A DNA stretch of 64,000 nt from a bacterium (lineage in GTDB: Bacteria; Patescibacteriota; UBA1384; VFKW01): assembly GCA_030647355.1 (NCBI GenBank), contig JAUSIS010000004.1, positions 4,066-68,065 of the forward strand, written 5' to 3'. The position numbers and the translations under genes are program-made. The stretch's first letter is position 1; every line of letters starts with the position of its first letter. The notes beneath the pieces are model-generated. The model did not search any database and was not told the origin of the DNA. It saw only the letters and a list, made by a program, of their open reading frames with translations. Shown piece by piece: positions 15,797-32,429 of the stretch.

Positions 15797-16756
15797 TTAT
15801 TTCTCCCGTGAGTGGCGTATATAACCCGAGCAGGGAATAATTTCTATCCCGGCTTTTTCCAATTTATCAACTATTAGATTGAGACCAATCGAGTCGGAAG
15901 CTATGTGTCCGGCTATCACAACATTGATGTAATGTTTAGCCGCTTCCTCCCGGCTTTTTTCTGCAATGTGCATAGCGATTTCCGTGCCTATTCCATAATG
16001 ACTCATTCTTTCATAGACTTTCTCTGAACCGCCGGTACCTCCAGTCATGCCCGATACAACTATTTTTCCCGCTCTTGATTTTTCTTCTCCGGAAAATATT
16101 ACCGGTCCTGCTTGTAATTTGATTGCCTTATTGTATTCAGGAATTTCCTTTAAGCAATCAATTATCTCCCCTACTGTTTGGGGCTTTTTATCCTGAATAT
16201 ATTGATCTACAAAATGCCAAACGCAGTTGTCTGCCGGTGTATGGACATTTAGGATAGGAATATTTAATATTTTGGCAGTATCTATCGGTTGATAATGGTT
16301 TATCGGGGCTACATCGCGAGAAACTTGCGCCAGACGCTCTTGAAGAGTGCCTTCAGCAATATTCTCAGGCATGCCGGCTTTTACTAGAACTTCAGTTTGG
16401 ATATCCATTACTTCGTGGAGCAGTGCTAAAGCTTTGCCAATTGGGTGATGGCTAACAATGAGATCAATCGGTTTGCCCATTCTCTCTAATTCTTTAGCTA
16501 ATAAAACTTCGGCGGAATCTATATCTATGCCGATAAGAATTCGTTTGATTACTTTATTAGGATCACCAAAATGAATAGCTGAATCTGAATAAGGATTAGT
16601 TAACCTATCTTTATCATACTCGGCTTTCTTTTTAGCTGTTAATTCGCTATATTCTTTTTTATTTTTGGAGAGTAACTTTTCTATACCTTGGCGGCCTCTC
16701 GGGTCATTGTCTATACCTGTTTGAATGCAAAGTTCAAAAATTTCCTGGATAGTCAT
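15797..16756 (-). CDS. Nif3-family dinuclear metal centre protein (GTP cyclohydrolase 1 type 2 homologue)
   Basis: DLIVSHHP and AGHIASDS motifs resemble the Nif3 metal-binding motifs. Confidence 0.5.
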   Translation of the reverse strand: MTIQEIFELCIQTGIDNDPRGRQGIEKLLSKNKKEYSELTAKKKAEYDKDRLTNPYSDSAIHFGDPNKVIKRILIGIDIDSAEVLLAKELERMGKPIDLIVSHHPIGKALALLHEVMDIQTEVLVKAGMPENIAEGTLQERLAQVSRDVAPINHYQPIDTAKILNIPILNVHTPADNCVWHFVDQYIQDKKPQTVGEIIDCLKEIPEYNKAIKLQAGPVIFSGEEKSRAGKIVVSGMTGGTGGSEKVYERMSHYGIGTEIAMHIAEKSREEAAKHYINVVIAGHIASDSIGLNLIVDKLEKAGIEIIPCSGYIRHSREK

Positions 16757-16923
16757 ATTTTCCTTTCTTCTATATACTACACCATTTTTCAGAGGTAATA
16801 AAGGTAGAGTTTGCTAAATTGTGGGGTTTTTCATTATAATAGTATAGATGGAGGAAAATTATTAAATATATTTTAAAATTTCTTCTTGTCCCAATTATCG
16901 TTACTGCTTTATATAGCATAACC

Positions 16924-18642
16924 TTGCCAGTTAGAGCCGATATTAATGAGTGGTCAATTAAAAAATTTGAATCAGAAATAATTTTAAATAAAGATTCGAC
17001 AGCTACTATAACAGAAAATATTTTAGCCGATTGCGGTAATTGCGTAGGTAAGCATGGAATTTTCCGAATATTGCCTTTGCAGGCACAAAAAACAACTACC
17101 GATATAATAAAATCACCAATCAAACTGCAAAGCATAACCGACTTTAATAATAAACCCTACGACTTCCAGGAGATTATTAACCAGACAGATAAAACCATTA
17201 CATGGAAAATAGGCGATCCAAATATTACAGTTACCGGAGAGAATGATTATAGGATTAAATATATAGCAAAGAATGTTATCAGGTCTGGAAATACAGAATT
17301 TGATGAGTTCTATTGGAATTTGAATGGTATTTTTTGGGATCTTCAGACGGACAATTTTACAGCTCGAATCGTATTTCCTCCAGAGGTTACTTCGACAGGC
17401 ACACCAGTTGTCTACTTATACGGCGGTGGATTTGGACAAAATTCTCAGATAGCCAGTTATAAATGGGGAGGTAATATTTTAGCTGTCGAATCGAGCAGAA
17501 AATTACTGCCGAAAGAGGGAATAACAGTATCGGTGACAGTGCCCAAAAATATTTTCCAGCCCTATATTTTGACTAAACAGGATGAAGAGCTGTATACCGG
17601 CGGCGGGAAAATTACTCTACCAGATAGTGTAAAAAAATTATTTAATATTGCCGGTTTCTCTTGGCCTATAATGGTGCTGTTATTATGTTATCTTATCTGG
17701 GCGAAATATGGCAGGGATCCCAAGATTAACCGTGCAGTTGCACCCGAATTTGAGATACCAAAGGATCTTAGCCCAATTGATATGGGGATGGTTGATTCCA
17801 ATGGCAGACTGCTCAATCATTTTATTTCGGCAACTATCGTTAATTTGGCTGTAAAAAATTACATTACAATTGAATTAATTGGAAAAACGGGAATTTTTGC
17901 TAAAGAAGATTATAAATTGAGAACATCCGGGCAAAATATTCAGAGCTTGGGTGAATCGGAAAAAATTATTTACGAAAAACTTTTTGACGGGCAGTCGGAG
18001 ATTTTGCTATCAAGTTTGAAAAATAAATTCTATCTAAAATTACCAGGGATTATAAAAAATATTGATGGTAGTTTGCAGACTGCCGGGTTAATTAAATTAA
18101 CCGGTAACTATATTAAGTACGGGCTGGTAGCTTTGGCTGTCATATCTTTATTCGGTGGGTTTTCTTTGCTTGCCTTGGTACCTGCACTTGGGGGAGGATT
18201 GTTGGCTGGAGCTTTGATTATGTTATTTTTTGCCTTTATTATGCCATCCAGAACACAGCAGGGAGCGGAGCTTGAGCTTAGAATAAAGGGTTTCAAGATG
18301 TATCTAGAAACTGCTGAAAAGTATCGCCAGCAGTTTAATGAAAAAGAGAATATATTTGAGAAATTTTTGCCTTATGCCATGATATTCCAGTTAACGAAGA
18401 AATGGGTAAAAGCCATGCAGCAGATATATGGAGAAGAATATTTCAATTCGTATCATCCAATGTGGCTTCAAGGGGCATTACTTACAAGCGGGGATTTTAA
18501 CCTAGATCATTTCGAGACAGCTTTAGAATCTCTATCGTCAAATATGGCCAGTACAATTGCCTCATCACCTTCCTCCTCGGGGGCAGGCGGCGGCGGATTT
18601 TCCGGCGGCGGTGGAGGAGGGGGCGGCGGAAGAGGCTGGTAG
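16924..18642 (+). CDS. DUF2207-type membrane protein with a Gly-rich C-terminus (GGGGFSGGGGGGGGGRGW)
   Basis: Architecture: extracellular domain, TM helices, poly-Gly tail. The listed start is TTG at 16924. The in-frame upstream extension back to the stop at 16840 encodes a signal peptide (KYILKFLLVPIIVTALYSITLPVRA), so the true start is probably upstream and non-ATG. Confidence 0.6.
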   Translation: MPVRADINEWSIKKFESEIILNKDSTATITENILADCGNCVGKHGIFRILPLQAQKTTTDIIKSPIKLQSITDFNNKPYDFQEIINQTDKTITWKIGDPNITVTGENDYRIKYIAKNVIRSGNTEFDEFYWNLNGIFWDLQTDNFTARIVFPPEVTSTGTPVVYLYGGGFGQNSQIASYKWGGNILAVESSRKLLPKEGITVSVTVPKNIFQPYILTKQDEELYTGGGKITLPDSVKKLFNIAGFSWPIMVLLLCYLIWAKYGRDPKINRAVAPEFEIPKDLSPIDMGMVDSNGRLLNHFISATIVNLAVKNYITIELIGKTGIFAKEDYKLRTSGQNIQSLGESEKIIYEKLFDGQSEILLSSLKNKFYLKLPGIIKNIDGSLQTAGLIKLTGNYIKYGLVALAVISLFGGFSLLALVPALGGGLLAGALIMLFFAFIMPSRTQQGAELELRIKGFKMYLETAEKYRQQFNEKENIFEKFLPYAMIFQLTKKWVKAMQQIYGEEYFNSYHPMWLQGALLTSGDFNLDHFETALESLSSNMASTIASSPSSSGAGGGGFSGGGGGGGGGRGW

Positions 18643-18773
18643 AGCTTGGAAAGATTAGATTAGAGAGCTCAAGTTGCGAGCGGTTTTTGTTTTGTTCTAA
18701 TAATTTTATTCTGGTTCTTTGAGTGAAGATATTTTGTCCAACCGATTTAAGTTTATTGTTTTTTTCTAAGTTA

Positions 18774-18805
18774 ATACCTATTGACTTTTACACATCAATA
18801 GGTAT
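18774..18805 (+). promoter_or_regulatory. Palindromic operator-like site overlapping a sigma70-like promoter (-35 TTGACT at 18781-86; -10 TATACA at 18803-08)
   Basis: ATACCTATTGA (18774-84) and TCAATAGGTAT (18795-805) are perfect 11-bp inverted arms with a 10-nt spacer, about 50 bp upstream of the GTG start at 18853. Confidence 0.45.
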
Positions 18806-18852
18806 ACAACTAAGTTGTATAAAATAGATGAGCATATTACTAGGGGGTTTAT

Positions 18853-20227
18853 GTGGCAAATATTGATACGAAAAGGTTTGAGAGACGATTAGTACTGCCC
18901 AAAGGACAATTGAGATCATTTATAAGAGATTTGAGAAAAATACTCAAGCCGGTTAGTTTTTCGAAAAATAATTATTCGCAAACTATTTATCTTAATACAG
19001 AAGATCTTAGAGTTCCTTGGGGTATTTCTATAAGAGCTCGGCGATACGTGAAGAGACCTGATAAAAATATTACTATAGATTATTTGAATGATTACATTTG
19101 CGAATTTAAGGAAGGGGGCTTCGGATCCTGACCGTAAGGAAAAAATTCGAAAAACAATGAAAATTGACGACTTTTGCTCCTGGAGTGAAAAAAAACTAGA
19201 AAAGAGAATCTCTAAAGTTAAGTTGCGTCCCCATGCTGTCTGCCAATATTATCGTCAGCATTATATTTCAGATAAAGAAAAGGACTTGCGTTTAACTATA
19301 GACAAAAACGTTCGGTATGGATATTTCGATCCGATAAATGGATTCTCTTGGATCGGTAATGATGGAAGCGTCCGTATTGAAATCAAGGCAAGTAAAGAAT
19401 CAATGAATTCGGAAACATATCAGGAATTATTGAAAATACTGCAGAGTAAAAATTATTTAAATGTAATCTCTAAAAAAAATCAAATCTACAATTTTCTTAA
19501 GGATTTGCGGTTTAAGTATGTAAATAAACTAATCAACGAGTTGCCAGAATATGAAATCGAATCAAAAATTTCCATCAGCGACAACGATCCATGGATGGTA
19601 TTATTTAAAATTAAAGATGCTTTGGATAATGGATTTGATAAGAATTTGGATTTAAGTTATTATCCGCATGTTGAATGCACATCAAGAGTATACTATTATT
19701 TTCAGAAACTAGTTGATCCGCAGATTGACGAGGTTATTAAGTTATCGTTCAAAATTAATAAATTTCGACTTATATACAAAGACGAAGCCAAATTTATTAA
19801 GGATAGTTACCATCTAGGATGTATTATAAAAAGAAAGGAAATCAAAAATCCATGGTTTAATTTCAATGTTTCTAACAGTAAAAAAGTGCTCAAGATAATT
19901 GAAAATAAATTAGGATCCTTTACCAGAAGTGACTATTTGCAACGCAATAGGTTGGCTATTTGGCCACTCAATAATGTTTCCGGCAGATTATACCGTATAG
20001 GGATTGATAAATGTACGAGTAATTCCGGAGTAGATTATCAAATGGAGATCGAATACGAAGGTAGAATTAAGGGAGAGTGGAAAATTAGTAAAAACACTGA
20101 AAAAGAGATATCTTCAGAGTTGGCACATTTGACAAATACTGTATTTAACCTCCTAAATAAGGACAAACCCACTGCCGCACCAACACAGGAAACAAAACTC
20201 GATATCTTAAATTATAGGAAGAGGTAA
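18853..20227 (+). pseudogene. VTC-domain (CYTH/triphosphate-tunnel, polyphosphate-polymerase-like) protein split by a +1 frameshift at a G5 homopolymer (19114-19118)
   Basis: ORF 18853-19131 carries KRFERRLVL...YSQTIYLNTEDL...SIRARRY. ORF 19088-20227 carries KVKLRPHAVCQYYRQHY...DLRLTIDKNV...VRIEIKASKE. Both parts match conserved blocks of the Vtc4-type VTC domain. Deleting one G of GAAGGGGGCTTC joins the frames. Confidence 0.5.
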
Positions 20228-20249
20228 GAAGAGAATTAAAATATTGTGG

Positions 20250-21713
20250 TTAAGTACGTGGTAGTTTTCTAACAATCCCTTTCTCGGCATCAACTTCGAC
20301 AAGGTCACCGTCCTTTAATATTTTAGTCGCATTTTTCGTGCCGATCACGCAGGGTTTGTGCATTTCCCGGGCCATAATGGCCGCATGACAAGTAATACCG
20401 CCCTCGTCTGTGACAAAAGCAGCAGCTTTTTCCATGGCTGGCAATAGATCTGGCGTGGTCATAGAGGTTATTAAGATGTCACCTTTTTCAACCTTGATTT
20501 GTTGTGAAGGATTATTGACTATTTTTACCGTGCCCTTAACTACACCCTTGAAAGCAATTTGGCCTTTTATAAATTTATCCGACGATGTTGATTTTGAAAT
20601 ATCATTTTGAATTAGATTGCCCGTTTCCCAATTGAATTTTCCACCCGTTACAGAAATTGAAAATCCCTTTTGGCGGTCTAGTATCTTCTCCTTGAGCGAT
20701 TTGATATCTTCTTTACCTATATTATATATTTCTTCTTTTACTAAAAATGGCATCAACTCGCCAGATATCCCGACTTTTTGGCCTATTTCATATAAGATTG
20801 GCAATAAGTTATAAGCAGATAAGTTGATACTATCTTTCACATAAGTTCTAAGGAAAATCCAATTTTGATATTGTTTAATCAATTTAATATTTTTATTATC
20901 AAAATTTAATTCTTTGAAAATTTGTTTTTGTTTTTCTTCTTGTGCTTTTTGTTCCTTAATAATATTTTTTAGTTCACTCGCGGCATTTTTAGATAATTCC
21001 ATAAAACGCTTGGCAACTTCTTCTCTTTGAAGTGATTTACCTATGAACCAATGATATGACATCCAATTAAATTGTTTAATGTGATAATCAATGCATTGAT
21101 TCTTTTGTTCGGATGAAAAATTCGGAAAATCTATGGCACTTTTTAGAGCCGATTTGCGTTCTTCTATGACAATACTATTATTATTCGGCTCGCTAAGAGT
21201 TTCTAGATAAGATTCTAGCTGATCTATTTTATTATTCATCGCAGCTTTTAAAATAATTAAATTATATGCTTTTTCTTGAAGAATGTCTGCCATTTGTACA
21301 GAACCCCGATAACTCATATAGCCATTAATTTCTATAAATGTTTTTAACTCTTTTTGAAGAAAATTGATTAATTCTAGAGGCGTCATATTGTGTAATTTTG
21401 ATTGATTATAATCTTTTTTGAACCTGATTTTGGTTGCGAGGTGAAATATTTTATTGGCGATTTTATCCGGGTACGAAAAATTCTTATCGACATTGTAGGC
21501 TAAAAATGATTTTGTAATTTCAATTTCTTCCTCGTCGAAATAAAGATCGCCATCGAAATATGCTATGGCTGAAATAGATTTGGGAATTTCAAATGCCTTG
21601 ATACTAGCGTGGAAACCGTCAAGATAATATGAGGTGGAAAGCGGAGTATTTATTTTTTTCATATTCCATAGCCATTTAATTGGGTGGCCAGCCATATTTG
21701 TTTTCATCTCCAT
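20250..21713 (-). CDS. PEP-utilizing-enzyme mobile (phosphohistidine swivel) domain protein with an unrecognised ~370-aa N-terminal region
   Basis: C-terminus reads GGITCHAAIMAREMHKPCVIGTKNATKILKDGDLVEVDAEKGIVRK, the classic PEP-utilizers motif. No ATP-grasp or PEP-binding TIM domain is recognisable. Confidence 0.6.
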   Translation of the reverse strand: MEMKTNMAGHPIKWLWNMKKINTPLSTSYYLDGFHASIKAFEIPKSISAIAYFDGDLYFDEEEIEITKSFLAYNVDKNFSYPDKIANKIFHLATKIRFKKDYNQSKLHNMTPLELINFLQKELKTFIEINGYMSYRGSVQMADILQEKAYNLIILKAAMNNKIDQLESYLETLSEPNNNSIVIEERKSALKSAIDFPNFSSEQKNQCIDYHIKQFNWMSYHWFIGKSLQREEVAKRFMELSKNAASELKNIIKEQKAQEEKQKQIFKELNFDNKNIKLIKQYQNWIFLRTYVKDSINLSAYNLLPILYEIGQKVGISGELMPFLVKEEIYNIGKEDIKSLKEKILDRQKGFSISVTGGKFNWETGNLIQNDISKSTSSDKFIKGQIAFKGVVKGTVKIVNNPSQQIKVEKGDILITSMTTPDLLPAMEKAAAFVTDEGGITCHAAIMAREMHKPCVIGTKNATKILKDGDLVEVDAEKGIVRKLPRT

Positions 21714-21821
21714 GTCCTTTGTTGAATATTATCTTACTTATTATGCAACAAATAATCGCTCTCTTCAATCTGAGCTCGAACCACTGCTTTGAGGGTATTA
21801 AATTTTAACCGAAAATCGTCA

Positions 21822-21837
21822 GAGGGGCCAGGCGGGA
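21822..21837 (+). repeat. Degenerate copy A of the tRNA-Lys 3' end, inverted relative to the tRNA gene
   Basis: GAGGGGCCAGGCGGGA. Compare the reverse complement of the tRNA-Lys 3' end, GAGGGCCAGGCGGGGATCGAACCC. Confidence 0.45.
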
Positions 21838-21845
21838 CGACAAGA

Positions 21846-22115
21846 TTACCGGCTAGAAAAATTTTGTAATAATGTGCTGTACATTTGGGCGTCTTCGGCA
21901 ATTTTAGAATTGTTTTTGAGATTTATTATCTTTATTTTTTTTAGAATATTAGTGATATATTCAGGGCAAGAAGAATAAGATATTTCTTTCTCTCTTTTCT
22001 GGGCTTCAGTCAAGAATCTTTCTGCCATGATCACAGAATTTCTCTGAAGACCTAGAGATATTCTTTTTAGATCCATCGCCATTGATTGAATAGCATATTT
22101 TTCATCGAATGTCAT
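21846..22115 (-). CDS. Hypothetical small protein (89 aa)
   Basis: ORF only. Its start overlaps the stop of the upstream 112-aa ORF (ATGA). Confidence 0.35.
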   Translation of the reverse strand: MTFDEKYAIQSMAMDLKRISLGLQRNSVIMAERFLTEAQKREKEISYSSCPEYITNILKKIKIINLKNNSKIAEDAQMYSTLLQNFSSR

Positions 22116-22450
22116 AAGACTTCCTTAAAAAATTTCTTTGTAAGCTTGTCAAATAGTTCCCTTACGACCATATCTTGGATTTCATTGCCACGATTATTTT
22201 GTTTAGGCCTGATATTAATGAATGAATTATAGTCGATTGTGTTTGTTGCAATATCTATACCACCACCCCAAAGATTTTCTTGCTTAGAACCATTTTCGAG
22301 CAACAATTGCTCGCAGTCGAAGTGTCTATCGCATCCGGCACAACATATTTCTTTTTCAGTATCAAAAACTGTTTTTATATATACCTCAAAAAGCTCTGCT
22401 AATTTTTCAATTTCTTCTTTCGAGTATGGAGTTTCCTTTATAATAACCAT
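22112..22450 (-). CDS. Hypothetical small protein (112 aa) with CCAGCDRHFDCEQ Cys/His cluster
   Basis: ORF only. Translationally coupled to the 89-aa ORF. Confidence 0.35.
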   Translation of the reverse strand: MVIIKETPYSKEEIEKLAELFEVYIKTVFDTEKEICCAGCDRHFDCEQLLLENGSKQENLWGGGIDIATNTIDYNSFINIRPKQNNRGNEIQDMVVRELFDKLTKKFFKEVL

Positions 22451-22512
22451 ACAGCTATTTTACCACAAAATAATTTTAAGGGAAGAAATTTCATATAAGA
22501 AACCCCTACGCA

Positions 22513-22531
22513 GAGGTGCCAGGCGGGGATC
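22513..22531 (+). repeat. Degenerate copy B of the tRNA-Lys 3' end (inverted)
   Basis: GAGGTGCCAGGCGGGGATC. Confidence 0.45.
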
Positions 22532-22554
22532 AAGAGGAACCTTTGATGGAGATT

Positions 22555-23406
22555 TTAAGAGAGTTCGTCGGAAGGTCGGTAAGTACTCATGTAGAGTACG
22601 TATAGTATAGTACTTAAAAAGATTACTGAAATCTTTATTTCTTCTGTTTCATTATTGAGATCGTAATTATGGGGTAACATGGACCACCTGAGATTTGCCT
22701 CTTTAGTTAAAGACTCAAAAAAATTAATTATGCCTTGTTCGCTTTGATCTTCGCTAGCTTTCTGGAATATCTTTAAATCTAGTTTATTGATACTGTTTGC
22801 CCACTCAGACCTTGATGCAGACAGTTTGCATATTTCTCTTTTATCTACAGTATTTACGACCCACTGCCCACCTCCAAGTAAGTTGCCATCGATTGTAGCA
22901 ATAGCTTCTTTGGCTACGTTAAATACTTTTCTGTTTGGAATATCCAAAATAGCCATATGGTTATCATTTTTAAATAATTCAACTAACCCATTATTTATAT
23001 TTGCCTTAATGTTATTATTGGAACCATCATAGATAGAAAATACACCATTCAAAGATGATCCATGATTATCCATGTAGCTATAACTAAGAACCAAGTTGCC
23101 TAGTGCGGCTAAATTATTGTTTTGATAGTACCCGATTGTTCCTTTGATATCGACTTTTGTCAGTATGCGGTTCGCTTTTGTCAGCTGAGAAAATTCAATA
23201 TCTTGAGTTCCAGTCATCACATTGCCCTTTAATAAATTATTAGAATAAGCCATCATATTTTCTGTTCTACTAGTAATGTCTTCAGAAGTTTTACTTAAAG
23301 CTTTGCCAGTTTTATTTATCCAAATGAATCTCTTAATTATGAACACCATGACTACTAGCCAAACAATACCAAATGCAATCAAAAATAATATCTGTTCTAA
23401 ACTCAC
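22555..23406 (-). CDS. Hypothetical membrane-anchored protein (283 aa), Asn/Ser-rich
   Basis: N-terminal TM helix ILFLIAFGIVWLVVMVFII. No recognisable domain. Confidence 0.4.
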   Translation of the reverse strand: MSLEQILFLIAFGIVWLVVMVFIIKRFIWINKTGKALSKTSEDITSRTENMMAYSNNLLKGNVMTGTQDIEFSQLTKANRILTKVDIKGTIGYYQNNNLAALGNLVLSYSYMDNHGSSLNGVFSIYDGSNNNIKANINNGLVELFKNDNHMAILDIPNRKVFNVAKEAIATIDGNLLGGGQWVVNTVDKREICKLSASRSEWANSINKLDLKIFQKASEDQSEQGIINFFESLTKEANLRWSMLPHNYDLNNETEEIKISVIFLSTILYVLYMSTYRPSDELS

Positions 23407-23469
23407 TTTCTCCTCCGTTCATGAATAATTATAACATATAAGAACTTTTTCGGGTGCTTATATGTTATA

Positions 23470-23488
23470 GAGGGCCAGGCGGGGATCC
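23470..23488 (+). repeat. Copy C of the tRNA-Lys 3' end (inverted)
   Basis: GAGGGCCAGGCGGGGATCC. Confidence 0.5.
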
Positions 23489-23653
23489 TTCTCCCCCATC
23501 GTTTCACTCCTCCTCTGAAGCCTGGGACTTTTGCTGACGGCTCACAAAAACTGTTCGCCTATTCCTCCACTGGAGGCGCAAAAGTTCCCTTCGATCCCCT
23601 TATTTATTGGCTCAGATAAAATAACCCCATCTTGCGACAGGGTTATTTTATCT

Positions 23654-23677
23654 GAGGGCCAGGCGGGGATCGAACCC
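23654..23677 (+). repeat. Copy D of the tRNA-Lys 3' end (inverted), 24/24 identity, immediately preceded by a 15-bp-stem hairpin (23613-23654)
   Basis: GAGGGCCAGGCGGGGATCGAACCC equals the reverse complement of GGGTTCGATCCCCGCCTGGCCCTC (tRNA-Lys T-arm plus acceptor 3' strand). The adjacent hairpin is CAGATAAAATAACCC..GGGTTATTTTATCTG. Confidence 0.6.
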
Positions 23678-23795
23678 ATGATTTCAATGAATCGCATTGA
23701 TTTTTCGATCAGTTTACTCCATATTGAAGTGTTGACGGATATAGTGTTTTTTTGGTATAATAATTTAGAAATAAGGTTTATTTTATTTTTCTATT

Positions 23796-24121
23796 GGGCC
23801 AGTAGCTCAGTGGTAGAGCAGGGGCCTTTAATAATAAGAGCCTTTGCAGAGAAAAACAATCTGCAAAGTGGACGTCGCTATATGCTGGAAACCCCGTTGT
23901 TGCCGATGGTACTCGTTCGTAAGAGCAGTGAAAATCCATTCGGTGCGGACAATCAGCAGGAAACCCCGCCAAAGACGGGGGCTCCTCAGAGACTACACGC
24001 GATGCACCTGAAATGGTGAAGATATAGTCCAGACTACAATCCGCCAGCTGGCGGAGCTAGGGTAACTTAGTGTGGTAAGTTAAGCCTCGTGTCGCGGGTT
24101 CGATCCCCGCCTGGCCCTCCA
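23796..24121 (+). tRNA. tRNA-Lys (anticodon UUU) interrupted in the anticodon loop. Exon 1 is 23796-23828, exon 2 is 24080-24121 with encoded CCA
   Basis: Exon 1 is GGGCCAGTAGCTCAGTGGTAGAGCAGGGGCCTT. Exon 2 is TTAAGCCTCGTGTCGCGGGTTCGATCCCCGCCTGGCCCTCCA. Joined, they give a 7-bp acceptor stem (GGGCCAG/CTGGCCC), D-arm, anticodon stem GGGGC/GCCTC, loop CUUUUAA, T-arm GCGGG-TTCGATC-CCCGC. Confidence 0.75.
23829..24079 (+). ncRNA. Group I intron (IC3-like, tRNA-Leu(UAA)-intron family) inserted between anticodon-loop positions 34/35 of tRNA-Lys; no ORF
   Basis: Conserved R element CAGAGACTACACG (23987-99) and S element AAGATATAGTCC (24019-30) form P7. A P9-like hairpin CCGCCAGCTGGCGG is present. 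The 5' exon ends in U, the intron ends in G (24079), and the intron 5' end TAATAATAAGAGCCTT resembles cyanobacterial tRNA-Leu introns. Confidence 0.75.
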
Positions 24122-24273
24122 TATGAGGGGAAAGACACATCCAATAGAAATTAGAGAAAATGCCAAGACCTCAGATTTGAAGGTCATTCTTTGAATGAGA
24201 TAGCTAAGATAACGGGAGTTTTTATGGGTCCAAAAGAAGGGTAAGAGGTTGGGTCATATACGATCTAGGTCAT

Positions 24274-24795
24274 CTAATCATAACTTGAAGAAGTGCGGCG
24301 GATGCCGCCAGTTACGATTATCAATAATACTGGCGCAATTGTCCAGAATAAGCGGTAATCAATAATAAATCTGGCCATTTTGGAGGTTTCCTGGAGACCT
24401 TGACGCATTTCCGGTGGCATAAAGGTTGCAACTGCAGAGAGTAGTAGGACGGCATTAAAAAAACTGTAGGCAATGATTTCAATAGGAGAAAGTAGTCCGC
24501 GGGTACTCTTGCCGCCTAAACCGGATTTGCCAGCGACTAGGAAAGCTACTACAAGAAAAACGACTGCCTGGATGGTAAAAGGGGAAATATTAGCTTGAAT
24601 CCAGACTGAATTGGCAAAAGTTTTATTGCCAGTAAAAAAAAGCCGAATCGGTTCAACGACGACGGAAGATACAACTATACCGGTATAGATTGAGAGCAGG
24701 AAAGAAACAACGCGATCGCGTTGCATTATAAAACCGAATCCAACGGCTATGACCAGAAAGATGATAATGAAGACATCCCACGAGGGCACGCTCAT
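24274..24795 (-). CDS. Hypothetical polytopic membrane protein
   Basis: 173-aa hydrophobic ORF. Confidence 0.4.
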   Translation of the reverse strand: MSVPSWDVFIIIFLVIAVGFGFIMQRDRVVSFLLSIYTGIVVSSVVVEPIRLFFTGNKTFANSVWIQANISPFTIQAVVFLVVAFLVAGKSGLGGKSTRGLLSPIEIIAYSFFNAVLLLSAVATFMPPEMRQGLQETSKMARFIIDYRLFWTIAPVLLIIVTGGIRRTSSSYD

Positions 24796-24866
24796 ACCCC
24801 TCCATAGCGACTATTTAATCTCAGTATCTAGCATAACAAAATATAGAGACAAGTGTCAATTCTAAT

Positions 24867-25115
24867 TTATCTTTCAAATTTGTTGAGCTCTTCAATAATC
24901 TGTTCTATTACTTGCTTAGACTCATCCTCATTAGTCGGAAGAGGCAATCCCAAACGCTCCGATAATTCGGCCATTTCTGGCTCAGGATCTTTCATTTTAT
25001 CTTCTTCTGAAACCCCATACTCTAGATAGCTGATCCCTATTAATTGCCGATACCGTTCCAGGTTGCGAATTCGTTCATTCGGCTCTCCCTCGGTCCTAAT
25101 TTCGTCTCTTTCCAT
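24867..25115 (-). CDS. Hypothetical acidic small protein
   Basis: 82-aa ORF upstream of the dnaJ-like gene. Confidence 0.3.
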   Translation of the reverse strand: MERDEIRTEGEPNERIRNLERYRQLIGISYLEYGVSEEDKMKDPEPEMAELSERLGLPLPTNEDESKQVIEQIIEELNKFER

Positions 25116-25160
25116 TGCAATCTCCCATTAGTTATTATCAAAATAATAACATATTGAGGC

Positions 25161-25790
25161 TCACCTTTCTAGATGTTTCAATTCCTCATAGAGGCGGCGC
25201 TGGTCGCGGGTAAGATGCCTAGGTGTTTGAATATGAACGCTGATAACCAGGTCTCCGCGTCCCCGTCTGGTTTGAGCGCCTTTACCGCGAAATCTAAATT
25301 GAGCGCCGTCATGCATACCCGGTGGAATTCTTAATTTTAATTTGTCGCCATGCTGAGTTTGAAAATGTATTTCATCGCCAAGGACTGCTTGGGGAATAGA
25401 TATATTAATCTCCGCTTGGACATTGGAAAAAGCCCCTTCAAAAAGATCTTCAAAAATACTGCCTAAGCCACCGCCGGAAAAGCCAGAAAAATCAAAACCG
25501 CCTTGATTGAAGCCGCCGCTATAGCCGCCCTGACTAAAACCACCGCCAAAGCCGCCAGGACTACCGGCCCCAACACCCGCTTTGCCGAATTGATCATAGG
25601 CGGCGCGTTTCTGCGGATCCGACAAAACTTGATAGGCTTCGTTAACTTCTTTGAATCTGCCTTCAGCTGATTTACCGGCTCTGTCAGGATGATGTTGCAT
25701 CGCCATTTTTCGGTAAGCTTTTTTAATTTCATCAGCGCTTGCCGATTTGGTAATGCCTAATATTTCATAATAATCTCTATCTGTTGCCAT
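25161..25790 (-). CDS. DnaJ (J-domain) protein, short form with G/F-rich region, lacking the Zn-finger
   Basis: [33 protein letters not shown]-domain with [19 protein letters not shown] repeats. Confidence 0.75.
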
Positions 25791-25877
25791 AATTATTCTA
25801 GTTATCCTCCTTATGGAGATGGCGAGGAAGTTACCTGCCTCGCCATCATACCATAAAACCTGAGTTTTTCCAACTAG

Positions 25878-27791
25878 TTAGCCAACCTGTTCGCCTTCAG
25901 TTTCTTCTTTTGGCTCATTTTTGGGCTCTTCTTTCGGCTCTTCGGGCGCTGATTGAGAACCGGGTTCTTGCGGAGGAGTTTCGTCTTTGGATTTTTCATA
26001 CATTGCCGAACCGACTTTTTGAATAGCTTCAGAGAGTTCTTCGGTGGCAGATTTGATTTCTTCTGACGATGAAGAGATATTGGAGACGCTTCGGGTTTTG
26101 GTTATTTTATCTTCAACTTCACGTTTTAATTCAGGATCAACCTTATCGCCAGCGTCTTTGAGAGTTTTTTCGGCTGAATAAATTAGATTATCGGCGATAT
26201 TTTTGGCTTCTATTGCTTCTTTCTTCTTTTGATCATCGGCGGCATGAGCTTCAGCTTCCTGACGCATTTTCTCAATTTCTTGCTCATTTAAACCACTTGA
26301 GGAAGTAATAGTAATTTTTTGCTCTTTGCCGGTGGCTTTATCCTTGGCTGTAACATGGAGGATGCCATTGGCATCAATATCGAAAGTTACTTCGACTTGA
26401 GGAATACCGCGCGGGGCGGGAGGTATGCCATCGAGAATGAAACGGCCGAGTGTGCGGTTGTCGGCGGCCATTGGACGCTCACCCTGGAGAACATGAATCT
26501 CTACAGTAGTCTGATTGTCGGCGGCAGTAGAGAAAATCTGGCTTTTGGAAGTCGGGATTGTGCTATTTCTTTCAATAAGCGGCGTCATAACTCCACCGAG
26601 GGTTTCGATTCCCAAAGTAAGTGGAGTCACATCGAGTAAGAGCAGTTCTTTGACTTCACCGCTTAGAACTCCGCCTTGAATGGCGGCGCCGAGGGCGACT
26701 ACTTCATCAGGGTTAACGCCTTTGGATGGTTCTTTACCGAATATCTTTTTTACAGTTTCTTGAATCAGCGGCATTCGGGTCATCCCTCCAACTAAAATTA
26801 CCTCATCAATTTTTTCCTTAGTGACTCCGGCATCTTTCAGAGCTTGCTCGGATATAGGGACTGTTTTGTTGATGAGTTCGCCAGTTAGCTGCTCCAGCTT
26901 TGAGCGAGTAAGTTTCATGACAAGGTGTTTTGGACCGGTTGCGTCGGCTGTGATAAACGGCAGATTAATTTCTGTTTCCTGGCTGGAGGAGAGCTCGATT
27001 TTGGCTTTTTCGGCTGCTTCTTTAATACGCTGGATGGCAGTTTTCTCGGTGCGCAGATCTAGACTTTCCTGTTTTTTGAATTCATCAATAATCCAGTCCA
27101 TCACTTTAATATCTAGATCGTCGCCGCCTAAATGGGTATCGCCGCCGGTGGACTTGACTTCGAAGACACCATCGCCGATTTCTAAGATAGTTATATCGAA
27201 TGTACCGCCGCCGAAATCATAGACGGCGATTTTACCTTCTTTTTTCTTATCAAGACCATAAGCTAGGGCAGAGGCGGTCGGTTCGTTGATAATCCTTTGG
27301 ACATTCAGACCGGCAATTTTACCGGCATCTTTGGTCGCTTGGCGTTGGGAATCGTTGAAGTAAGCCGGTACAGTAATTACGGCATCGGTGACTTTTTCAC
27401 TTAAAAATGCTTCGGCATCTGTCTTTAATTTCTGCAGAATGAAAGCGGAAACTTCTTGAGGAGAGTATGGTTTGCCTCCCATCTCAACTGCAACACCACC
27501 GTCTGATTTAACAATTTTATAAGGCATTAATTTAATATCTTTTTGGACTTCCGAATCTTCAAAGCGGCGACCAATCAGACGTTTTACAGAGTAAACGGTG
27601 TTTTCCGGGTTGGTAACCGATTGTCGTTTAGCAAGCTGACCGACAAGACGTTCATTGTTTTTCGCTACAGCAACAACGGACGGGACGATATTTGAGCCCT
27701 CGGCTGAAGGAATGATTTTTGGTTTTCCTCCTTCCATGACAGCCACGGCTGAATTAGTAGTTCCAAGATCTATTCCAATAATTTTTGCCAT
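25878..27791 (-). CDS. dnaK: Molecular chaperone DnaK (Hsp70)
   Basis: Start at [18 protein letters not shown] (27791). DLGGGTFD and other Hsp70 signatures are present. Confidence 0.95.
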
Positions 27792-27864
27792 TTTGTCTCC
27801 TTTTTGGCTTTCTCCGCTATAAAATAAAGCGGAATTTAATTGGTATCTAAATATACGATAATAC

Positions 27865-27888
27865 AAATGTAAAGTTTTCTTTACATTT
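27865..27888 (+). promoter_or_regulatory. Perfect 10-bp inverted repeat (AAATGTAAAG-TTTT-CTTTACATTT) ~75 bp upstream of dnaK; candidate operator
   Basis: Seen directly in the sequence. It is not a CIRCE (TTAGCACTC-N9-GAGTGCTAA) or HAIR element. Confidence 0.35.
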
Positions 27889-27941
27889 TGTCAATAGCTA
27901 AAATACTAGAGGATAGACTCTACCCGTCATTAGTGGTTGGA

Positions 27942-28211
27942 TTATTGCGCTTCAGTATCTTCTTTTACCTCAAAGGGTGGATACTTTGGTGGCTCGCCGG
28001 GTGGCAACAGAGTATCTCTAACCAAGGAGTCCTGAGGAGTAAATAAGTCTTGGCAACGCTTAAGTGCTTGCTCGGATAGTTCATCTGTCAGATCTTCGGA
28101 TTTCGCGCCTTCTGGTAAAATACCAAGAGCTTGAGCTACTTCTAGGCGCTCTCTTTGAAACTTAGCCGCCCCTTCCAAAGCAATAACTTCTAATTTTTTT
28201 TCTTCTTCCAT
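27942..28211 (-). CDS. Hypothetical acidic protein between grpE and dnaK
   Basis: 89-aa ORF in the chaperone operon. Confidence 0.35.
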   Translation of the reverse strand: MEEEKKLEVIALEGAAKFQRERLEVAQALGILPEGAKSEDLTDELSEQALKRCQDLFTPQDSLVRDTLLPPGEPPKYPPFEVKEDTEAQ

Positions 28212-28244
28212 TTATTCTCCTTTACATAAATAATAGCATATTAT

Positions 28245-28790
28245 TCACTTTCCGCTAGAGACGCGGACTTTGGCGCAACGGACGACTTTGTCATTCAGTT
28301 TGTAGCCGCCTTCCAGTTCATCAATAACAGTGCCCTCTTCCAGTTCCGGGTGGGGCTCGTAGGCGATTGCCTCCATAGTATGCGGATCAAATTGTTTGCC
28401 GATTGTCTCAATATGGGTCAAGCCAGCGGAACTTAGCACCCCTTCCAGCTGTTTCTCGATTTGACGGATACCATCAAAATAAGCACTAATTTTACGCAGT
28501 TCATCTTCGGAAAGCTCGGGAACATTTTTGTCTGAAATTTGAATGGCCGGTGCGTGTTCGGAGGCACGGCGAAAGTTGTCTAAGATCGGGAATATCTCGG
28601 CAACCAGTCCATTTGTCGCCAAATGCGATGCTTGAGCGTGCTCGGTTTCTTTCCTTTTCCGATAATTATCAAAATCAGCTGCCAAGCGTTTGCATGATTC
28701 TGCCAGCTCGGCATTTTCTTTTTCCAGCAGTTTTATTTTTTCATTAATCATTTCAGGCTTATTGACGTCGCTTTTTGGTTTTTTGACCAT
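28245..28790 (-). CDS. grpE: Nucleotide exchange factor GrpE
   Basis: C-terminal FDPHTMEAI...GYKLNDKVVRCAKVRV matches GrpE. Start at MVKKPKSD (28790) is preceded by AGGAG. Confidence 0.8.
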   Translation of the reverse strand: MVKKPKSDVNKPEMINEKIKLLEKENAELAESCKRLAADFDNYRKRKETEHAQASHLATNGLVAEIFPILDNFRRASEHAPAIQISDKNVPELSEDELRKISAYFDGIRQIEKQLEGVLSSAGLTHIETIGKQFDPHTMEAIAYEPHPELEEGTVIDELEGGYKLNDKVVRCAKVRVSSGK

Positions 28791-28827
28791 TTTCGGCTCC
28801 TTCTCTTCCTTATGGTAGAATAATAAC

Positions 28828-30006
28828 ATGAGCCAGTCAAGGTTATTAATATATATGTGCCTGTCATTTGCCATGGGTATTGCGGGTGAAAATTGGATTG
28901 CCGTTAATCTGAAAATCATCGGGTTGGTAGTTTTGTTTTTATTTATGATCGGAGTTTTTCTAACGAGAGAAATAAAAATACGGCTGATTATTTTGTTTTG
29001 GGTAATTTTCTATTTGGGAATCGTCTATAGTAATTATCTAGCAGATGGTAGTTTGATCGGATCGGTTTTTTTGGCGCCAATAGTTGTCAGGTTAGGAGAT
29101 TTGCGAGAGTTAATCGAAAATTTATGCGCCCGTCTAATTAGTGAACCTTATGCTTCGCTTCTAAATGGAATATTGCTAGGGACTAAGAGCGGATTCGGTC
29201 CTGATTTATATCAGGCATTCAAGATAACCGGTTTAATGCATATTGTGGCAATCAGCGGATACAATGTGACAATAATCGTTAATTCTTTCTTTGTTTTAGC
29301 CAAGCCGCTTGCTTTACGACTACGGATGGGCTTAACTTTGGGTTTAATAATTTTATTTATTATATTGACCGGCGGTTCGGCTTCCGTTATAAGGGCGGGC
29401 ATTATGGGCGGGTTAGTAGTGGCGGCTCGCCTTTTCGGACGCAAGGCATTAGCCCTGAATTCATTAATATTGGCGGGATTTTTAATGGTAGCAGAGAGAC
29501 CGTATATTCTAGTCCATGATATTGGATTCCAGCTTTCAGTTGCCGCTACTTTGGGTTTAGTACTTTTCAGTCCAATTTTGAAAAGAGTAGGGGAGAGGGG
29601 AGTTGTAAAATTGTTGCCGGAGACTTTCCGGGAAGCGCTTTTTTCCACTCTCGCCGCTCAAGTGATGACAGCGCCTATTATCTTTTATTATTTTAAAAAT
29701 CTATCTTTGGTCTCCCCTATCGCCAATTTGCTGATTTTACCGATTATTCCCCTAGCAATGTCCATTGGCTTTATGGTAATTCTGGCCGGACTTTTATACT
29801 TTCCAATCGGTTATGTGCTCGGATTTGGAGCCTGGTTAATTTTGTATGTTATTGTATGGGTGGTAGAAAAATTAGCCCTAATCCCCTATGCCAGCATGAA
29901 TACACCGGCATGGATGATGTCGTTAATAATTCCGTATTATATTTGGCTAGCTTATCTAATCTGGAGTCAGCCGAAACAAGGAGTTTTGTCTAATGAAAAA
30001 ACTTAA
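28828..30006 (+). CDS. comEC: ComEC/Rec2 DNA internalisation channel, competence (membrane) domain only
   Basis: LLGTKSGFGPDLYQAFKITGLMHIVAISGYNVTII is the competence-domain signature. Polytopic membrane protein. Confidence 0.75.
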   Translation: MSQSRLLIYMCLSFAMGIAGENWIAVNLKIIGLVVLFLFMIGVFLTREIKIRLIILFWVIFYLGIVYSNYLADGSLIGSVFLAPIVVRLGDLRELIENLCARLISEPYASLLNGILLGTKSGFGPDLYQAFKITGLMHIVAISGYNVTIIVNSFFVLAKPLALRLRMGLTLGLIILFIILTGGSASVIRAGIMGGLVVAARLFGRKALALNSLILAGFLMVAERPYILVHDIGFQLSVAATLGLVLFSPILKRVGERGVVKLLPETFREALFSTLAAQVMTAPIIFYYFKNLSLVSPIANLLILPIIPLAMSIGFMVILAGLLYFPIGYVLGFGAWLILYVIVWVVEKLALIPYASMNTPAWMMSLIIPYYIWLAYLIWSQPKQGVLSNEKT

Positions 30007-30832
30007 CTTATGGTTGGCGTTGATAATTATCGCCGGAGTTGTCTGGGCGGGAGTTGTTAAGCATCCGGCACCGGATTTTCGGATGTATTTTTTGAATGTC
30101 GGGCAGGGTGATGCGACCTATCTATCGTTTCCTGACGGCCAAGATGCGCTCGTTGATGGAGGACCGGGAGATCGAGTTCTGACCGAGTTGGGACAAGTGA
30201 TGCCATTTTGGGATAAAGATCTGGATTTAGTAGTCGTGACGCATAATCACAGCGATCATATATCCGGTTTGGTTGGGGTTTTGAAAAGGTATCAAGTAAA
30301 TGAGATTTGGTTGAGCGGGGCAATTCACACAAGTAATCAATATTTAGAAATGCTAAGACTAATTAAAAATAAAAAAATCCCCGTGAAGATAGTTGAGGAA
30401 GGTGAGGAGAAGTATTTTGATCAGGTGAAGGTAAGGGTTGTTTATCCGGATGAAAATTGGCAAGGGAGAAAACCGGAAGATCAGCACGAAGCAACTGTGG
30501 TAACGAGGTGGACTTATGGAAAGTTTGCTTTACTTTTGACTGGCGATTTAGGGACGGCACAAATTGAACGCATAACGAGTTCCCGAGAAATAATCAAAGC
30601 GGATATTTTGAAAGTGCCGCACCATGGGAGCGCAACCGGGTTAAATAAGGAGTTTCTGGAGAAAATAAGCCCTAAAGCGGCAGTAATATCGGTAGGTAAG
30701 AATAATTCATTTGGACACCCAAAGCAATCAATTTTGAATTTGCTGAAACATTATTATATTAAGACTTATCGAACTGACCAAAATGGACGAGTGGAATTTG
30801 AAAGCGATGGTAGCGGCTTTAATAAGATTTAA
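29993..30832 (+). CDS. Metallo-beta-lactamase-fold protein with N-terminal TM helix, equivalent to the ComEC C-terminal MBL domain encoded as a separate gene
   Basis: VVTHNHSDHISG (HxHxDH) and KVPHHGS motifs. Start overlaps the comEC stop. Confidence 0.7.
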   Translation: MKKLNLWLALIIIAGVVWAGVVKHPAPDFRMYFLNVGQGDATYLSFPDGQDALVDGGPGDRVLTELGQVMPFWDKDLDLVVVTHNHSDHISGLVGVLKRYQVNEIWLSGAIHTSNQYLEMLRLIKNKKIPVKIVEEGEEKYFDQVKVRVVYPDENWQGRKPEDQHEATVVTRWTYGKFALLLTGDLGTAQIERITSSREIIKADILKVPHHGSATGLNKEFLEKISPKAAVISVGKNNSFGHPKQSILNLLKHYYIKTYRTDQNGRVEFESDGSGFNKI

Positions 30833-30860
30833 ATGAAAATAGCGGCGGAAAATCCGCCGC

Positions 30861-31556
30861 TTAACTGGTATTCCAGAGTACTTTGGCGAGCGATAATAGG
30901 TCTTCATATCGCTCGGCTGGATAGTCGCGAGGGACCCCTGGCCAGCCAGTCAGTACTTCACAGTACCGGATGCCAGCAGCCTTGGCTGCCTGGGCGTCAT
31001 ACGGTGCATCGCCTACATAGATGGCCTCTTCTGGCTTGACTCCCAACTGATCGCAGGCATAAAGTAGTCCGTCGGGAGCCGGTTTTTTCGGCAGTTTCAG
31101 CTCGGGAAGTTTGAAGATTCTGCTAAAGTACCCACCAATGTGATCCACTATCACATGATCCATCGGTTCGGCACGGTTGGTAACGATAGCAAGATGGCCG
31201 ATGCCAGGGCCGCCTACTGTCCACCAAAGCCTTCGCAGAGCTTCAACTGTCCCGGGCAGCAATCCCGCCCGGAGATTGGCTTGTGAGTATAGCTCGCACC
31301 ACATCAGAGTGGCCTCGTTTACGGTTAAGCCAATCCTTCTTCCGGAGTACTGCTCGTAACTGGGAATCAGGTGGAAGAATAAATCCTCTACCGAAAAGGC
31401 ATGTATGTCGTAGCTCTTGAGGAGCCGATCTAGACAGCCCTTATCATCACCAACTCGTTGACGCCAGATCTCATTGATAACCAGGCGATGGGCATGCAAT
31501 ACATCAAATAGCACGCCGTCATAGTCTAGGAGAATCACCTTGATCTTAGTTGTCAA
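30861..31556 (-). CDS. HAD-superfamily hydrolase (subfamily IA, phosphatase-like)
   Basis: ILLDYDGVLFD (DxDG motif I) and GDAPYDAQAA (motif IV-like). Confidence 0.6.
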   Translation of the reverse strand: MTTKIKVILLDYDGVLFDVLHAHRLVINEIWRQRVGDDKGCLDRLLKSYDIHAFSVEDLFFHLIPSYEQYSGRRIGLTVNEATLMWCELYSQANLRAGLLPGTVEALRRLWWTVGGPGIGHLAIVTNRAEPMDHVIVDHIGGYFSRIFKLPELKLPKKPAPDGLLYACDQLGVKPEEAIYVGDAPYDAQAAKAAGIRYCEVLTGWPGVPRDYPAERYEDLLSLAKVLWNTS

Positions 31557-31679
31557 AGACCTGTTCCATCCTTTCGCCCGTATTAGATATCAGAAAACTT
31601 GTGCTAATATAACAGATTTTGGCCCTTTTGTCAAGGAGAGGGATATGGTATAATCGGCGGGAATACGGAAGGAGAAGAG

Positions 31680-32429
31680 ATGTCAGGACATAGCAAGTGG
31701 TCTACGATAAAAAGACAAAAAGGCGTAGCAGATGCGAAGCGAAGCAGTGTTTTTACCAAATTAGCCAATACCATATCGGTAGCCGCCCGGCAGGGCGGCG
31801 GCGATATGACAATGAATTTTTCCTTGCGACTCGCCATTGATAAAGCCAAACAGTCAAATATGCCAAAAGAAAATATTGAACGAGCAGTTAAAAGAGGCAC
31901 CGGTGAACTAGAAGGAGCCAGGATTGAGGAGGTTATGTATGAGGCATATGGACCGGGAGGAACCGGTATTTTGGTGGAGGCGGCAACCGATAACCGCAAC
32001 CGGACTTCGGCGGAAGTTAAAGTGATCTTTAATAAATTTGGGGGCAAATTAGCCGAGCCGGGAGCAGTAAGTTATCAATTTAAAAAAAGGGGGGTACTGA
32101 ATTTTCTATTAAACGACAAGGATGCAGATGAAGTAGAATTGGCGGCAATAGAAGCAGGCGCAGAGGATTTCGAGCAGCATGGTAAGGAACTAATCGTTTA
32201 TTCTGAGCCAAGAGAAATTGATAAAGTTAGGGCAGCGATGATAGGGGCTGGTTTTGAACCGGCGGAGGTAAGTTTGTCTTGGGAACCATCAGCGATGATT
32301 AAGATAGAAGACGAGAAGATGGCGGGTAGCATTTTAATATTAATGAATGCACTTGAGGAGTTGGAAGATATAACAAGCGTCTCGAGTAATTTTGATATTC
32401 CAGATCAATTGATGGAAAAGTTAGTTTAA
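31680..32429 (+). CDS. yebC: YebC/PmpR-family transcriptional regulatory protein
   Basis: MSGHSKWSTIKRQKGVADAKRSSVFTKL is the canonical YebC N-terminus. Confidence 0.85.
   Translation: MSGHSKWSTIKRQKGVADAKRSSVFTKLANTISVAARQGGGDMTMNFSLRLAIDKAKQSNMPKENIERAVKRGTGELEGARIEEVMYEAYGPGGTGILVEAATDNRNRTSAEVKVIFNKFGGKLAEPGAVSYQFKKRGVLNFLLNDKDADEVELAAIEAGAEDFEQHGKELIVYSEPREIDKVRAAMIGAGFEPAEVSLSWEPSAMIKIEDEKMAGSILILMNALEELEDITSVSSNFDIPDQLMEKLV

Follow-up and report, generated by a model that had tools for sequence, protein, structure and literature searches.

In a 64,000-nucleotide stretch of a Patescibacteriota genome (contig JAUSIS010000004.1; hereafter the window, that is, the whole stretch of DNA that was analysed), two overlapping open reading frames (ORFs) are the halves of one gene of the VTC or triphosphate tunnel metalloenzyme (TTM) type that has been broken by a single frameshift. 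ORF A (18853-19131, plus strand, frame 1, GTG start, 92 residues) and ORF B (19088-20227, plus strand, frame 2, 379 residues) overlap by 44 nt, the latter lying in the +1 frame relative to the former. The most parsimonious, though not proven, explanation is a single extra G, most simply a change from G4 to G5 at 19114-19118, any other 1-nt insertion in the same short interval being equivalent. The reading favoured here, with a probability of about 0.6, is a recent and genuine inactivation of an accessory gene that left a young pseudogene; mis-sequencing of an intact gene is less likely. Judging from predicted structures, the protein is a member of a small undescribed family in which two tunnel domains stand in tandem.

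Reconstruction of the split gene

The first-pass annotation of this DNA had read the two ORFs as one VTC-type gene interrupted at a G5 homopolymer. Both the ORF coordinates and the position of the tract at 19114-19118 were borne out on re-examination, and so was the unity of the gene: the repaired protein scores above the Pfam VTC cut-off, has Vtc4 as its top fold match and has intact homologues. Of two lysines conserved in the family alignment, K86 is encoded in frame 1 and K97 in frame 2, and the shift is confined to the 18 nt between the K86 codon (19108-19110) and the frame-1 stop (19129-19131). A change from G4 to G5 is the most parsimonious lesion because the GGGGG tract, inside GAAGGGGGCTTC, is the sole homopolymer in this interval. 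Removal of one G yields a 457-residue ORF in which EFKEG is directly followed by ASDPDRKEK, and the length of the repaired loop between strands beta4 and beta5 falls within the family range. The GTG start agrees with the N-termini of the homologues (MxxIDLxRxExRF). ORF B begins with 10 out-of-frame codons (19088-19117), corresponds from position 19118 onwards to ancestral residues 89-457, and its ATG (19088) has no Shine-Dalgarno sequence before it. The NCBI annotation covers only this 379-residue fragment (MDO8512922.1).

The homologues of the gene were collected by an exhaustive HMMER search against 1.84 billion cluster representatives, which returned 144 relatives, 32 with E<=1e-30. Most of the 144 measure 420-470 residues and follow the repaired frame collinearly over residues 1 to about 452; about 90 are intact homologues of 400-490 residues collinear with the 457-residue protein. 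The best relative (P0002) is 42% identical to the repaired protein. Word-indexed protein searches, with either the repaired protein or the family alignment, gave essentially only the protein itself, and no close orthologue was found among GTDB species genomes or JGI metagenomes with the single-protein query. The orthologue comparison proposed in the first-pass annotation was informative in this regard: the reading frame is open over the junction in 14 homologous loci, none of which has the same shift, and these make up the unsplit 14 of the 17 loci that cover the junction. The collinearity of the repaired frame with intact homologues, the conserved lysines read in frame 1 (K86) and frame 2 (K97) and the open frame at 14 loci together identify the split as one broken gene. 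Three further candidates for a split member were rejected: P0024 is a contig-edge truncation, P0112 comes from the noisy contig L013, and P0136 (L012) lies on a contig of 711 bp that carries an in-frame TAA.

For run SRR13727527, an independently made Logan assembly contains a 62,909-bp contig that is 100% identical to the window over 15853-23227, G5 included, and in which both ORFs are called. This agreement makes an assembler artefact unlikely. The window carries long intact ORFs throughout and no other broken genes, with 17 tracts of five or more G within 26 unbroken genes, and contig L013 looks quite different from it. The extra G is probably the real majority allele. With respect to the age of the lesion, the 369 codons of ORF B are fully open in DNA of 32-36% GC, and, of the 59 positions with a conservation of 80% or more, the repaired protein keeps 52, among them every one in the N-half. 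The seven that deviate (N228, R278, Y280, D360, R381, G383 and I451) are all in the C-half. The lesion is therefore taken to be recent, since ORF B remains uninterrupted in such low-GC DNA and every highly conserved N-half position has been kept.

Two predicted tunnel domains on one polypeptide

At the structural level, an AlphaFold2 (AF2) model of the whole protein, built from the family alignment, shows two consecutive beta-rich modules (predicted local distance difference test, pLDDT, 92.1; predicted template modelling score, pTM, 0.90). In a Foldseek search this model retrieves Vtc4 first (3g3r/3g3q, E about 2e-9), followed by Vtc2, YgiF, AtTTM3 and Cet1. The top matches are solely TTM structures, whether the search is made with the predicted model of the full-length protein or with that of its C-half. 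The VTC character of the N-half is also visible at the sequence level. Run on the fused translation, Pfam VTC (PF09359) scores 27.7 bits, above the gathering score of 23, covering profile positions 103-174 of 235 only, and the same family matches 21 of 25 family members. A family profile compared with PDB sequences hits Vtc3, Vtc2 and Vtc4 chains with E-values from 1e-4 to 0.04 over the LRP..Y.R...R.T.D strands. The conserved blocks listed in the first-pass annotation turned out to be family motifs: R8-x-E10-x-R12, QTIYLN, S59..R63.Y, LRP..Y132.R134, R146.T148.D150 and R174.E176.K178. Among 92 full-length members, R8 is kept in 76, E10 in 79, R12 in 72, E176 in 83 and K178 in 84, and conserved Arg or Lys residues of the N-half lie at positions 12, 63, 86, 97, 134, 146, 178 and 207. 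Besides VTC, neither SPX nor a transmembrane channel nor any other Pfam domain was found in the window protein and the 25 members.

The roughly 200 C-terminal residues beyond the VTC domain had been described as unassigned. This part of the first-pass annotation does not stand, as the AF2 model and Foldseek now point to a second, CYTH-type triphosphate-tunnel domain of about 230 residues. Modelled alone, the C-half reaches a pLDDT of 94.4, and its top Foldseek match is AtTTM3 (5a5y, E 1e-7, TM-score 0.58/0.63), followed by YgiF, the Bacillus CYTH protein GBAA_1210 and viral and fungal RNA triphosphatases. The CYTH character is visible only in the predicted structure and not in sequence-level searches: Pfam CYTH matched neither the window protein at E<=1 nor any of the 25 members at E<=0.01, and the C-half profile had no match to PDB sequences. 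An internal duplication was considered and rejected, since an hhalign comparison of the N-half with the C-half was not significant. Conservation in the C-half is nevertheless strong among the 92 members, with E234 kept in 88, E236 in 86, K238 in 85, E329 in 88, E398 in 89 and E400 in 89, all of them present in the window copy. Conserved Arg or Lys residues lie here at positions 238, 296, 309, 327, 331, 364 and 366; among the conserved residues replaced in the window copy are N280 (by Y) and S383 (by G). The nearest relative, P0002, lacks the ExExK motif of the C-half (R-I-E-S-M there) and keeps only 75% of the conserved positions, and the C-tunnel in the clade formed by the window protein and P0002 may already have been under relaxed constraint before the lesion. 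Across the family as a whole, the sequences indicate clear purifying selection on both tunnels.

What the two tunnels might do can be approached through the acidic patch. In hydrolytic TTMs a patch of four glutamates forms a second metal site (Martinez et al. 2015, PMC4641920), composed in AtTTM3 of Glu2 and Glu4 on strand 1, Glu90 and Glu171 (PMC4641920). In Vtc4 the patch positions are basic and guide the growing polyphosphate (polyP) chain, and Glu169 is invariant in both classes (PMC4641920). The N-half of the window family has basic residues, R8 and K178, at two of the four patch positions and retains E10, the fourth equivalence being uncertain (K86 or K97). By strand order, E176 (83/92) and E398 (89/92) would be the invariant metal-holding glutamates that correspond to AtTTM3 Glu169. 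The intact enzyme probably acts on phosphoanhydride substrates. A division of labour between the tunnels can be inferred because the C-half has a complete hydrolase-type signature and the N-half has basic residues at two patch positions: the N-tunnel would be Vtc4-like and bind or extend polyP, while the C-tunnel would carry out two-metal cleavage of tri- or polyphosphate or of nucleoside triphosphates.

Origin and consequences of the frameshift

The proposed course of events starts from an ancestral gene that would have encoded a soluble protein of 457 residues with two different TTM domains in tandem. Its N-tunnel would have been VTC/Vtc4-like, with R8 and K178 basic where hydrolytic TTMs carry acidic-patch glutamates, and its C-tunnel of the classical CYTH type, with the full metal-binding signature of ExExK (E234/E236/K238) and ExE (E398/E400). 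Gain of one G (G4 to G5) in the surface loop between beta4 and beta5 would then have shifted the frame, so that translation from the GTG at 18853 would stop after 92 residues. The likeliest outcome would be loss of the N-terminal tunnel function, the locus being a young pseudogene in a variable, low-GC and non-syntenic part of the chromosome.

The first-pass annotation had offered a sequencing or assembly indel, a phase-variable switch or a decaying gene as explanations of the split. Of these, a recent genuine lesion is retained as the best reading, and the assembler artefact and the phase switch are disfavoured. Homopolymers are a classic place for indel errors, and the organism might really carry G4 and an intact 457-codon gene, the fifth G being a sequencing or consensus error. 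The otherwise pristine state of the gene, with ORF B fully open and the conserved N-half residues all kept, is what a non-biological frameshift would produce. However, two assemblers agree over more than 7 kb including the G5, and no other gene of the window is broken despite the 17 comparable tracts in intact ORFs, unlike in the noisy contig L013. A G5 is, moreover, short for a systematic short-read indel, and the error is regarded as unlikely. It is also conceivable, at a lower probability that makes it very unlikely, that the lesion is real and the locus still works, either through non-covalent reassembly of the ORF A and ORF B products or through a C-tunnel made alone from an internal start. 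The break falls in a surface loop between beta4 and beta5, the C-half is a self-contained and confidently folded domain in its AF2 model, and a distant, unrelated homologue (L011 2101-2955; JGI 3300044712, Ga0453684_0135074) shows a split in this loop too, where an ATG comes 3 nt past the stop of its first ORF and AAGGAG lies upstream. Yet a closed beta-tunnel cut after four strands is normally destroyed, the ATG of ORF B (19088) lacks a Shine-Dalgarno sequence and is followed by 10 codons out of frame, 14 of 17 junction-covering loci are unsplit, and one of the other split cases (L013) belongs to a noisy assembly.

The least probable explanation is a regulated restoration of the frame, by phase-variable G4/G5 slippage or by programmed +1 ribosomal frameshifting on a GGG_G slip site with AAGGA upstream. 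On GGGGG, a tRNA-Gly paired with GGG can slip into the +1 frame and pair again without mismatch, the Shine-Dalgarno-like AAGGA lies just upstream, and the tract comes early in the gene (codon 88), an arrangement reminiscent of contingency genes and prfB-type sites, where a G run early in the coding region separates two frames. Characterised contingency loci have tracts of about 7 or more, far longer than G5. The tract considered here is too short and too common for such a site, and neither a slow codon nor a stop coincides with the shift: in the 0 frame GGG is followed by GGC, which is used often enough not to count as rare (18.5 per 1000), and termination comes four codons on, unlike in prfB. 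The window holds 41 G/C runs of at least 5 (maximum length 6), fewer than the 63 +/- 7 of shuffled sequences. Neither the shift nor the tract is kept in any orthologue. Phase variation or programmed frameshifting is thus unlikely because the G5 is an ordinary tract and no orthologue has the same shift. The second shifted homologue in the same loop, L011, could be taken in favour of frame restoration, but its shift is opposite in direction and at an unrelated sequence. There, a 106-residue ORF ends at 2421 and continues in another frame from 2424, with a -1 shift inside ACGTCAAATTTGGTCATAAGG, which contains an A_AAT_TTG heptamer. That L011 is split in the same loop is put down to chance, to which the purine-rich and indel-tolerant nature of the loop and detection bias would have contributed. 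A lesser possibility, quite unlikely, is that the beta4-beta5 loop, frameshifted in two unrelated members, is a tolerated or regulated split point.

Several points weigh against a recent inactivation of a two-tunnel enzyme as the final word. A minority or even majority G4 allele is conceivable, the NCBI metagenome-assembled genome and the Logan contig may share their source reads, and with the closest orthologue at only 42% identity the lesion cannot be dated. The split of the distant homologue L011 in the same loop could hint at a tolerated or recurrent split, and translation from an internal start might still yield the intact C-terminal domain. Residues were equated with those of Vtc4 and AtTTM3 by motif order and predicted strands rather than by a superposition. 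As for the control region, the promoter is weak (9/12), and neither a regulator nor a second operator copy in the window was found.

Palindromes upstream of the gene

Two palindromes abut upstream of the gene. The first-pass annotation had noticed the perfect 11-bp inverted repeat with a 10-nt spacer, ATACCTATTGA-N10-TCAATAGGTAT, and this observation is confirmed: the window holds 4 perfect inverted repeats whose arms reach 11 nt or more and whose spacer does not exceed 20 nt, where first-order Markov simulations give 0.35 +/- 0.54, an excess that places the repeat beyond chance. The second palindrome, TATACAACT-A-AGTTGTATA, is new with respect to that annotation. It is not significant alone (2 observed against 1.35 expected); its position beside the first is what makes it notable, and it covers the candidate -10 hexamer and the start-site region. 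The repeats lie over the only candidate promoters. The best promoter-like pair was not called by the consensus scan, the conserved last T of the -10 being absent from it; another pair, TCAATA-17-TATAAA, reaches 8/12.

The two palindromes would most simply be protein-binding sites (candidate operators) over a weak promoter, an interpretation drawn from their position and statistics. The earlier proposal that the repeat overlaps the promoter and makes the gene repressor-controlled holds for the repeat itself but is not established beyond it. The promoter pair matches at 9 of 12 positions, the ATACCTATTGA half-site has no other copy in the 64-kb window, the neighbours tested yielded no DNA-binding domain, and no comparable upstream repeat occurs at the homologues. 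A terminator is not supported, as the hairpin lacks a U-tract, and an RNA element is likewise unsupported: Rfam gave nothing in the leader at E<=1 save a chance sRNA match, and the folding of 18760-18860 as RNA does not stand out (z = -0.83). Further inverted repeats with a perfect core of at least 11 nt lie at 23430-23469, 23611-23656 and 47955-47985. That at 23611-23656 has perfect 17-nt arms, CTCAGATAAAATAACCC and GGGTTATTTTATCTGAG, and two of the three are near the divergent region between the ORFs at 22555-23406 (minus strand) and 23531-24019 (plus strand).

Table 1. Coordinates of the split gene, its domains and its upstream region (positions are those of the window)
Feature	Position	Strand	Description
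Inverted repeat ATACCTATTGA-N10-TCAATAGGTAT	18774-18805 (arms 18774-18784, 18795-18805)		Perfect; candidate operator
Best promoter-like pair TTGACT-16-TATACA	18781-18786, 18803-18808	+	9/12, tied with other pairs; weak
Second palindrome TATACAACT-A-AGTTGTATA	18803-18821		Perfect, 9-1-9, centre 18812; overlaps the first by 3 nt
Shine-Dalgarno-like AGGGGG	18842-18847	+	5 nt 5' of the GTG start; read from the sequence
ORF A	18853-19131	+	Residues 1-88, strands beta1-beta4 of the N-terminal tunnel with R8/E10/R12, Y46, S59, R63 and K86; then 4 out-of-frame codons and TGA
ORF B	19088-20227	+	NCBI MDO8512922.1, "VTC domain-containing protein"
G5 tract	19114-19118	+	Likeliest 1-nt insertion site; G5 also in the independent Logan assembly
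N-terminal VTC-type triphosphate-tunnel domain (predicted)	18853-19528	+	Residues 1-225; Pfam VTC, family profile, Foldseek, conservation
Key N-half codons	R8 18874-76, E10 18880-82, R12 18886-88, E176 19379-81, K178 19385-87	+	
C-terminal CYTH-type triphosphate-tunnel domain (predicted)	19529-20227	+	Residues 226-457; AF2, Foldseek, conservation
C-half ExExK (E234, E236, K238)	19553-19567	+	Family conservation
C-half ExE motif (E398, E400)	20045-20053	+	Family conservation

Distribution and genomic neighbourhood

The family comprises about 140 clusters at 50% identity. Its named genomic homologues come from Moraniibacteriota, Saccharibacteria and an unclassified bacterium, all of the candidate phyla radiation (CPR), and from one Pacearchaeota archaeon (DPANN). 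For the DnaK of the window, the nearest sequences are those of the "Patescibacteria group" and of Berkelbacteria, at 72-78% among named matches. No conserved gene neighbourhood was found, as neighbours differ at every locus examined: type IV secretion system (T4SS)-like genes at L014 (Logan SRR30681617), where the gene for P0002 (4001-5353) lies inside a TrbL/PrgI/TraC-like type IV secretion cluster; integrase, S15 and PNPase at L015; PolX, NUDIX, MGMT and Zip at L001; a PhoU-like gene at L004; SRP54 and FtsY at L005; and RadC at L003. No VTC1 or DUF4956 membrane partner was present among the neighbours at the loci examined. A phage, mobile-element or defence origin was also considered and rejected, there being no match in phage records, plasmids, IMG/VR, PHROGs or PADLOC.

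In the window, the gene lies in a block of lower GC content, from about 16900 to 24200, with 30-38% GC (30-36% at the TTM gene) against 42-46% at 23.5-29 kb and in the syntenic part. Relatives with an 81-85% identical DnaK lack this block and show synteny with the window only across 24274-34681, and the TTM gene is absent within 10 kb there. The block contains genes for a DUF2207 protein, the TTM protein, a PEP-utilizers swivel-domain protein, an 89-residue ORF product, DUF5674 and a 283-residue ORF product, none with a counterpart in the DnaK-linked regions of the relatives L027 and L028. The block is probably a variable or accessory region, and the location of the TTM gene in it, together with its absence from the DnaK-linked relatives, fits with a dispensable accessory gene that can be lost.

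Upstream of the TTM gene, 16924-18642 (plus strand) encodes the DUF2207 membrane protein, whose tail is a glycine run (…SSSGAGGGGFSGGGGGGGGGRGW), the DNA of which supplies several local G5 tracts. The convergent neighbour at 20250-21713 (minus strand), 22 nt from the TTM stop, encodes 487 residues; the last 70 match the phosphohistidine swivel domain of phosphoenolpyruvate (PEP)-utilising enzymes and the N-terminal 400 no known domain. Elsewhere in the window, a c-di-GMP-I-GGC riboswitch aptamer (RF03167) was detected at 2742-2832 on the minus strand (67.4 bits against a gathering score of 59), upstream of an ORF (2069-2587, minus strand, 172 residues) that has no Pfam match. Among the homologous loci, L024 (Ga0172379_10019293) carries at 1612-1614 an in-frame TGA exactly where the family motif RKAFW has its conserved Trp, which suggests that its organism reads UGA as Trp (code-4-like).

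Relationship to known tunnel proteins and implications

The closest parallels of the N-half are the yeast proteins Vtc4, Vtc2 and Vtc3, with which it shares the Y-x-R and R-x-T-D strands, the invariant glutamate (E176) followed by a basic residue (K178) and a serine-lysine pair at the plug helix. In addition, it exceeds the Pfam VTC gathering score and has the Vtc4 structures as its best fold matches. The two tunnels of the window family recall the Vtc4/Vtc3 pairing of the VTC complex, but on one polypeptide. In contrast to Vtc4, the family has no SPX domain, transmembrane channel domain or conserved membrane partner, and it keeps E10, Vtc4 being without an equivalent of Glu-4. The C-half resembles the CYTH-type TTM hydrolases (the tripolyphosphatases AtTTM3 and E. 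coli YgiF, NeuTTM, CyaB and Cet1-type RNA triphosphatases) in its predicted closed tunnel, the ExExK on strand 1, the R-x-E-x-K strand and the E-x-E strand, which together make up the complete acidic patch by which two-metal TTM hydrolases are defined (PMC4641920); it differs from them in having no Pfam CYTH or PDB sequence-profile match. YgiF, a TTM domain with a polyP-binding CHAD, offers a further likeness, as a hydrolase-type tunnel is fused to a second module related to phosphate polymers, although the partner here is a tunnel and not CHAD.

Stand-alone bacterial VTC-domain proteins are single-domain and usually have a membrane-protein neighbour, often DUF4956. They measure about 230-260 residues, one example being that in the Clostridium perfringens NELoc-1 locus, and belong to the same Pfam family as the window protein. 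The window family differs from them as a fixed tandem with no conserved neighbour and with named matches in CPR and DPANN. That bacterial VTC-domain proteins are functionally uncharacterised, as the first-pass annotation had remarked, agrees with the searched literature, in which they receive only incidental mention. The tandem-tunnel family has no entry in that literature, run SRR13727527 and the protein accession appear in no paper there, and NCBIfam gave no match for the protein.

Taken at the strength given above, the frameshift itself is an ordinary lesion and mainly an annotation matter. The family behind it is a useful by-product; in it a Vtc4-like and a CYTH-like tunnel form a fixed tandem, and the tunnel residues of both are strongly conserved. 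The intact members P0003, P0004 and the copy at L004 are direct candidates for a prokaryotic VTC-type polyphosphate polymerase. A bolder idea, quite unlikely at present, is that the intact family would do in prokaryotes, as a soluble and self-contained enzyme, what the VTC polyphosphate polymerase does in eukaryotes, the Vtc4-like tunnel making or holding polyP and the hydrolase-type CYTH tunnel priming, trimming or using it. If this were true, it would mean that ultra-small CPR bacteria and DPANN archaea possess a polyphosphate or triphosphate metabolism independent of PPK-type kinases.

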